A stretch of 64,000 nt of DNA from a virus (Duplodnaviria > Caudoviricetes). The notes beneath the pieces were generated by a model. That model was not told the DNA's origin. It worked only from the letters and a program-made list of their open reading frames with translations, and did no database searches. Made by a program: the position numbers and the translations under genes. The stretch spans positions 1-64,000 of IMG/VR virus record IMGVR_UViG_3300033121_001593, one strand, 5' to 3'. Below, piece after piece: positions 40,222 through 40,353 of the stretch. How positions within the stretch are numbered: position 1 is the stretch's first letter; each line of letters opens with the position of its first letter.

Positions 40222-40250
40222 TTGACACCGGGCCTTAGATGCGCTAAAAT
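40222..40250 (+). promoter_or_regulatory. promoter with no downstream ORF (sRNA promoter)
   Basis: TTGACA-17-TAAAAT. Confidence 0.75.
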
Positions 40251-40255
40251 ACAGG

Positions 40256-40353
40256 AGCTTCTTCCCTGCTCCTTGCGTTGCAGATAGGGTCCTTTCGGAA
40301 CGTTGGTCCTCCTCACAGGAAAAGGCCGTAGCGGGCTGCTACGGCCTTTTCTG
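40256..40353 (+). ncRNA. candidate sRNA with three anti-SD motifs
   Basis: CUGCUCCUUGC, AGGGUCCUUUCG, UCCUCCUCA, then terminator AAAAGGCCGTAGC/GCTACGGCCTTTT. Confidence 0.6.

Follow-up and report, generated by a model that had tools for sequence, protein, structure and literature searches.

A conserved predicted small-RNA gene of a large uncultured phage carries motifs complementary to a ribosome-binding word of the phage's own promoter-proximal genes

An intergenic element of an uncultured large phage, whose sequence indicates that the host is probably a member of the Chloroflexota, combines its own promoter, the absence of an ORF and an intrinsic terminator, the organization of a stand-alone small RNA (sRNA) gene. 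We observe this anatomy, its conservation in relatives, and complementarity to ribosome-binding sites (RBSs) of the phage that is above chance, by a margin over Shine-Dalgarno (SD)-containing controls that is modest (p ~0.01–0.05), with a bias towards one class of genes. Even if the repressor function proposed for it should fail, the locus remains well supported as a phage sRNA gene that is conserved and whose invariant motif calls for an explanation. We give about even odds (roughly 0.5) to a reading in which the RNA would act in trans as an anti-SD mimic, occluding RBSs of the GAAAGGAC class in front of non-late phage genes, with extra seeds specific to the lineage.

The window, that is, the whole stretch of DNA analysed here, comprises the first 64 kb of the 143,318-bp phage contig (97% complete, 63.6% G+C; IMG/VR). 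The element is the meeting point of a plus-strand operon ending in the SSB gene and a long minus-strand block that ends at 40415-40774. This block carries terminase, portal, head protease, virion protein and endolysin, and is therefore assigned as the late block. The features of the locus, in window positions, are:

39782-40207, plus strand: SSB gene (Pfam SSB, E 1.7e-34), last gene of the operon reading into the sRNA element
40210-40221, plus strand: conserved A-rich/TGACCCC stretch, immediately 5′ to the -35 hexamer
40222-40250, plus strand: sigma-70-type promoter, TTGACA-17-TAAAAT (-35 at 40222-40227, -10 at 40245-40250), 11/12 match to consensus
40257-40355, plus strand: predicted small RNA of ~100 nt, with no conserved ORF
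40266-40276, plus strand: seed 1, with the anti-SD core CUCCUU, specific to the window's lineage
40273-40281, plus strand: motif 1, UUGCGUUGC, its first eight bases invariant in 5/5 lineages
40286-40297, plus strand: seed 2 (the middle seed), whose core GUCCUUUC at 40289-40296 is the conserved anti-SD motif
40307-40315, plus strand: seed 3, UCCUCCUCA, specific to the window's lineage
40315-40355, either strand: bidirectional intrinsic terminator, common to the convergent late operon; 13-bp stem plus four outer pairs
40415-40774, minus strand: convergent gene for a 119-aa membrane-type protein (ORF and codon bias), last gene of the late structural/lysis block

The promoter begins 15 nt past the SSB stop codon. 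No terminator is found between that stop codon and position 40222, so that transcripts of the SSB operon include the element, which is also the 3′ UTR of the operon. The ends of the predicted RNA are taken from the -10 hexamer (5′) and from the U run of the terminator (3′). In the predicted fold, the 5′ 60 nt are weakly structured and are followed by the terminator hairpin, the only stable hairpin of the molecule; the predicted accessibility of the seeds is moderate, with P(unpaired) put at 0.5–0.7 and, more broadly, at 0.4–0.8. The arms of the terminator stem (40320-40332 and 40338-40350) form 13 G+C-rich base pairs, and the terminator is considered bidirectional because an A run precedes and a U run follows the stem.

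Between 40208 and 40414, neither strand contains a credible ORF; the frames present are limited to ones of 21 aa and, in antisense orientation, one of 78 aa that overlaps the SSB gene. This agrees with a preliminary description made from the sequence, which had recognized a promoter, no ORF and a terminator at 40222-40353. A small peptide product was considered as well. Frames that start in motif 1 would encode 4 aa for the window's element and 11 aa for that of the relative L006, and the possibility was rejected because such tiny frames are not conserved in the relatives. No Rfam family matches the locus at the gathering threshold, and a tRNA/tmRNA scan found none there.

The SSB of the phage shares 60–76% identity with SSBs encoded on the chromosomes of Chloroflexota MAGs (Anaerolineae, Caldilineales and 'Chloroflexia'; L012-L016, L172-L176), which points to a Chloroflexota host and to a host-derived SSB gene. 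The promoter of the SSB operon (38690-38726, TTGACA-16-TATGAT) lies very near the ATG at 38718, so that the first gene of the operon would be leaderless or nearly so.

Relatives were found by exact-protein look-ups in Logan, NCBI and ENA assemblies, and all usable ones are short contigs; SSB homologues close to that of the phage are located in such contigs from metagenomes. Searches directed at IMG/VR, the GenBank phage collection and JGI metagenomes added no relatives: blastn gave no match in the GenBank phage collection, two protein-seeded scans returned nothing, and DNA-pattern scans gave nothing or chance matches only. The promoter–core–terminator module is present in the window and in four further lineages of metagenome phages, with SSBs 75–98% identical to that of the window. 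Two contigs with 98% identical SSBs carry an element identical to the window's. The element has about five substitutions in L005 (SSB 91% identical) and is more diverged in L006 and L008-L011 (SSB 82–83%) and in L137 (SSB 75%).

A gene of 157 aa lies between SSB and the element in L005-L011, and one of 180 aa in L137. In all of these contigs the element starts directly past the stop codon of the inserted gene. The element abuts the stop codon of whichever gene precedes it, and therefore moves as a module with exactly that stop codon as its left border. The 157-aa ORFan of the relatives (e.g., L006:3423-3896) is absent from the phage of the window.

The stretch at 40210-40221 is near-identical in the window, L005, L006 and L008 (where one T is changed to C), despite the different upstream gene. 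All five lineages (the window, L005, L006, L008 and L137) have an 11/12 promoter in this position, although the spacers differ, as do the -10 hexamers (TAAAAT, TATACT and TACAAT across the lineages). The terminators of L006 and L008 are 19–20-bp hairpins at the same place, unrelated in sequence to that of the window, and two compensatory double changes distinguish one from the other. Between promoter and terminator just two islands are conserved, both within otherwise diverged intergenic DNA. The first of these is UUGCGUUG (motif 1), which is invariant in 5/5 lineages of the alignment. The other is GUCCUUUC in seed 2, intact in 3/5 lineages (the window, L006 and L137), with a C-to-A change at the centre of the seed in L005 and a U-to-C change in L008. 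The gap between the two islands is 7, 10 or 12 nt, and the predicted RNA of L006 and L008 is only ~70 nt long. Retention of function while promoter and terminator sequences turn over around short conserved single-stranded islands is the pattern that would be expected of a small-RNA gene.

In the alignment, seed 1 is missing from L006, L008 and L137, and seed 3 from L006 and L008; both are limited to the window and L003-L005. The three anti-RBS seeds proposed earlier are thus of unequal standing, the middle one being conserved and the two others occurring only in the window's own lineage.

The genome contains ~40 strong sigma-70-type promoters (10–12/12 in a whole-genome scan), most of which lie in stereotyped cassettes with an RBS (G)AAAGGAC(C) a few bases before the ATG. 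A cassette opens with a terminator-like stretch, continues through the promoter and a stereotyped leader to the GAAAGGAC RBS, and closes with a small ORFan, frequently one beginning with MTTQT. Within the window, cassette-type promoters are observed, for example, at 1439, 3112, 21400, 23750, 27116, 29122, 32685, 34355 and 38690. We compiled a catalogue of 183 genes by codon-usage log-odds, with starts picked by pairing to a generic 16S tail. In this catalogue, RBSs of the AAGGAC type precede 13/24 promoter-proximal genes and 13/159 others (p 4e-7), the other genes mostly having AGGAG- or GGAGG-type RBSs. Gene class thus separates two RBS dialects in this phage. The private word GAAAGGAC, used mainly by promoter-proximal small genes, is the one matched by seed 2, and it also serves as an RBS in the relatives, SSB genes included.

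In the nearest Chloroflexota genomes the 16S tail terminates in CCUCCUUUCU. The 16S genes of the two nearest have the 3′ end CACCUCCUUUCU, and GAAAGGA therefore pairs with its last bases. The sequence UCCUUUC is common to GUCCUUUC and the 16S rRNA 3′ tail of the nearest Chloroflexota. As read from the sequences, an RNA bearing GUCCUUUC together with flanking G residues could pair over 10–12 nt with GAAAGGACC(C), compared with ~7 nt for the rRNA tail.

To compare this complementarity with chance, RBS regions were scored from -25 to -1, and a match was defined as a contiguous complement to the body of the RNA. Matches of at least 8 nt are found for 40/183 RBSs; as the cassettes are paralogous repeats of one another, these matches do not count as independent events. 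Dinucleotide shuffles give 6.7 ± 4.8, and 0/2000 reach 40; shuffles that keep the three anti-SD hexamers give 22 ± 6.9, and 22/2000 reach 40. At a length of at least 9 nt there are 15 matches, compared with 1.9 in dinucleotide shuffles (3/2000) and 7.4 in SD-keeping shuffles (77/2000). The exact 12-mer is not significant when taken alone (76/2000 shuffles).

Interaction energies, calculated as the cofold energy minus the energies of the two separate folds, lead to a similar picture. The real RNA exceeds 74/74 dinucleotide shuffles on the best site, the top-ten mean, the overall mean and the sites below -14 kcal/mol, and 73/74 on the sites below -18 kcal/mol. The preliminary description had named energies no better than those of SD-containing shuffles as grounds for abandoning the idea. 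This outcome was not obtained, since the real RNA ranks in the top 1–5% against 82 SD-keeping shuffles, a modest margin. RNAduplex scans run with no limit on loops yielded no useful information, the genome being GC-rich.

The locus also stands out within the genome. By the 8-nt measure, the sRNA ranks 1st among the 71,628 windows of 64 nt slid along the two strands of the 143-kb genome, with 40 matches against 29 for the next best and 27 at the 99.9th percentile. By the 9-nt measure, it is equalled solely by windows antisense to cassette-type RBS words.

The genome-wide scan recovered a second candidate anti-SD RNA on the minus strand, at positions 28975-29058 of the 64-kb window. It has an extended -10 (TGGTATAAT) followed by ~70–80 nt with GAGUCCUUUCGCU, which is complementary to the consensus RBS of the cassettes together with its upstream AGC, and it ends in a 13-bp terminator-like hairpin. 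Among the sliding windows that do not lie antisense to predicted gene starts, it ranks highest by the 9-nt measure, and no start codon follows the plus-strand RBS word at this place.

The following sites in the window are predicted targets:

3201-3212, plus strand: RBS of a 68-aa gene (3218-3424), complementary to seed 2 over 12/12 nt
1498-1508, plus strand: RBS of a 90-aa gene (1516-1788), complementary to seed 2 over 11/11 nt
18154-18164, minus strand: RBS of the 340-aa gene 17128-18150, 11/11 complement to seed 1
23825-23833, plus strand: RBS of the DUF932 gene 23841-24842 (DUF932, E 3e-21), 9-nt complement to seed 1

All of these pairings had been pointed out in the preliminary description. 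The exact complement of 40286-40297 at 3201-3212 is indeed present 6 nt before the ATG at 3218, and the 11-nt match over the RBS of the gene at 1516 was found just as described, before its ATG. These two genes sit behind strong promoters of their own, at 3112 and 1439, respectively. The 9-nt complement to the DUF932 RBS was likewise recovered. For the site upstream of the GTG at 18150, the complementarity to 40266-40276 is real but, considered by itself, no greater than chance (18/100 shuffles); the gene, previously called a putative initiator, shows only a weak HHH_5 match. The third seed named there does exist, at 40307-40315, but its sole exact complement in the window (27912-27920) lies inside a gene and not at an RBS.

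The sets of RBSs matched over at least 8 nt by the three seeds are disjoint, with 24 for seed 2, 11 for seed 1 and 5 for seed 3. Seed 2 matches 15/24 promoter-proximal genes and 9/159 others (p 3e-10). In contrast, the late block is avoided, with 1/40 genes matched versus 39/143 elsewhere (p 4e-4). When the conserved core is used alone, the ten best predicted partners are all (A)AAGGA- or GAGGAC-type RBSs. The matched proteins are small ORFans, for which Pfam and PHROG searches gave no matches; small ORFans are typical of early phage genes. The best single predicted site is located beyond the window, at genome positions 140505-140537, where 27 bp in four helices would cover the RBS and AUG of a 92-aa gene at 140535. 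Its core GAGGACCCUAUG is invariant in two relatives, in a stretch that also encodes the end of the upstream gene, and BLAST-type scoring of this 27-bp site was not significant.

From these observations we infer transcription of the element, pairing in vivo, repression and its timing, in the following manner. Host RNA polymerase would start at the promoter at 40222-40250 and stop at the terminator near 40355. The resulting RNA of ~100 nt, shortened to ~70 nt in certain relatives, would have an extended single-stranded 5′ portion ahead of the terminator hairpin. This portion would contain a conserved mimic of the 16S anti-SD tail, GUCCUUUC flanked by G residues, able to pair over 8–12 nt with the RBS word (C)GAAAGGAC(CC) of small, promoter-proximal, non-late genes. 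In the window's lineage, two further anti-SD seeds may widen the reach to AAGGAGCAG-type and GAGGAGGA-type RBSs. Such pairing would occlude the RBS and block binding of the 30S subunit. Translation of up to ~40 early/middle genes would then fall, while the late structural genes, with RBSs that are unmatched, would stay translatable.

The earlier proposal of an early-gene repressor agrees with the predicted targets, which are strongly biased towards promoter-proximal (early-type) genes and avoid the late block. The promoter of the sRNA belongs to the same host-type class as those of the presumed targets, and shut-off would therefore need a mechanism for the timing, namely an RNA that accumulates or that outlives the early messages. 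A broader proposal, which we put forward tentatively and regard as doubtful, is that the temporal programme of the phage runs partly by RNA, with one or two anti-SD-mimic sRNAs (the RNA at 40257-40355 and the second candidate at 28975-29058) out-competing ribosomes and silencing ~25–40 early/middle genes with GAAAGGAC RBSs while the late genes are spared.

The repressor reading has to be weighed against other explanations of the same locus. The most conserved island of the RNA is motif 1, which RBS pairing does not explain, as no complement of it was found near phage RBSs. We also considered whether motif 1 makes an additional contact with RBS regions of the phage, and rejected this, since complementary sites are lacking and shuffling the motif does not weaken the predicted binding. 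The element could therefore be a real small RNA with another main job, either pairing with host mRNAs through the invariant UUGCGUUG as the true seed, with the anti-SD word as a second contact, or binding or titrating a host protein or RNase. A host-type, probably early promoter would fit such a part in host takeover. The seed-2 substitutions in L005 and L008 are tolerated, and in the few genes available on these short contigs the RBSs of the relatives are still GAAAGGAC, so that no covariation is seen; this is some evidence, drawn from the alignment, that the constraint may be relaxed there. We nevertheless hold another main job to be rather unlikely. Sites complementary to both motifs amount to 3 matches in 301 genomes of the host's class, approximately the chance level and in unrelated genes, and the strong bias of seed 2 towards promoter-proximal phage RBSs would have to be a coincidence. 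Host translation, which the preliminary description had named as an alternative target, finds no backing in this 301-genome search, where the matches were at chance level; a host homologue or a host target with both motifs was discarded as a candidate on the same grounds. One Chloroflexota genome contains a bacterioferritin-like gene (L182:1046-1516) whose RBS and first codons are complementary to both motifs. As a single case in 301 genomes, this match is probably due to chance.

The position of the element in the transcripts of the SSB operon, with no terminator in between, also allows an action mainly in cis. The element would then be the 3′ UTR and terminator of the operon, with the anti-SD words folding back on RBSs of the same mRNA, or an insulator between early and late transcription, and the free RNA would be a by-product. 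A model for the folding-back variant is the icaR 3′ UTR of Staphylococcus aureus, where a C/U-rich anti-SD word pairs with the SD and represses translation (PMC3868564). The phage element is similarly a 3′ UTR, that of the SSB operon. The SSB RBS is GAAAGGAC in L006, L008 and L137, with an 8-nt match to seed 2 in L006 and L137 and 7/8 in L008, while the SSB RBS of the window (AAGGAGC) has a 7-nt match to seed 1, itself confined to the window's lineage. Furthermore, the bidirectional terminator is placed exactly at the early/late boundary. However, these 7–8-nt matches, found in every lineage, are no better than those to dozens of other RBSs. In addition, the icaR element works inside a single mRNA and lacks a dedicated promoter, whereas the phage element has an independent conserved promoter; if the element were no more than a 3′ UTR, there would be no need for an 11/12 promoter to be kept in five lineages despite turnover of spacer and -10. 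An action mainly in cis is, in our view, unlikely. Still less credible is a locus without function, consisting of minus-strand relics of two or three cassette RBSs and a chance promoter beside the terminator of the neighbouring operons. The minus strand does have three SD-like words of the kinds used by the phage, and the many duplicated promoter–RBS cassettes are a possible source of such debris. Yet none of the three words is followed by a start codon or an ORF, and all lie past the terminator for minus-strand transcription. A relic would also leave unexplained why the promoter–core–terminator layout was conserved while flanks, spacers and hairpin sequences turned over, and why the locus ranks first genome-wide by the 8-nt measure.

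The anti-SD-mimic reading has parallels in known systems. The alpha-proteobacterial 'cuckoo' sRNAs (ar14, RF02344; ar35, RF02346; NfeR1; CcsR/RSs0680) are stand-alone RNAs with two to four anti-SD motifs, which act redundantly and occlude the RBSs of many mRNAs (PMC4615179, PMC10746234). They fold into two to four adjacent hairpins with CCUCCUCCC in each loop (PMC4615179). The phage RNA resembles them in being stand-alone and in having several anti-SD motifs, but neither the family scores nor the loop motif place it among them. In the E-value mode of Rfam it obtains 25.4 bits for ar35 (E 0.005; gathering 45) and 11.3 bits for ar14 (gathering 58.8). These weak matches are driven by the C/U-rich motif and the terminator, and the nonamer CCUCCUCCC is absent from the phage RNA. 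Moreover, the phage RNA has three different words in an unstructured stretch, whereas the cuckoo RNAs present identical words in hairpin loops. It also differs in being phage-borne, in having a host that is probably a member of the Chloroflexota and in possessing one conserved motif only.

Among RNAs of phage origin, DicF of prophage Qin pairs at an RBS and blocks translation. The c4 RNA of phages P1 and P7 also pairs at an RBS, with translation being blocked (PMC12197685). Both have one or few specific targets and are not anti-SD mimics directed at an entire class of RBSs; c4 is released by processing of the transcript of the operon under its control, and neither shows sequence similarity to the phage RNA. 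In phage T4, the endoribonuclease RegB cuts within the GGAG of early mRNAs (PMC1702504, PMC3014915). RegB and the translational repressor RegA offer the closest functional logic in phages, in that a class of early messages is switched off via a feature of the RBS. These agents are proteins, however, whereas the one proposed here is an RNA pairing with a private RBS word.

To our knowledge, very little has been described of trans-acting sRNAs in virulent-type phages, and nothing of any in phages of Chloroflexota. If the proposed mechanism is true, an anti-SD mimic combined with a class-specific RBS word would constitute a simple and portable post-transcriptional off-switch for an expression class. 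It would explain why the phage has two RBS dialects, and would represent an RNA counterpart of T4 RegB/RegA.
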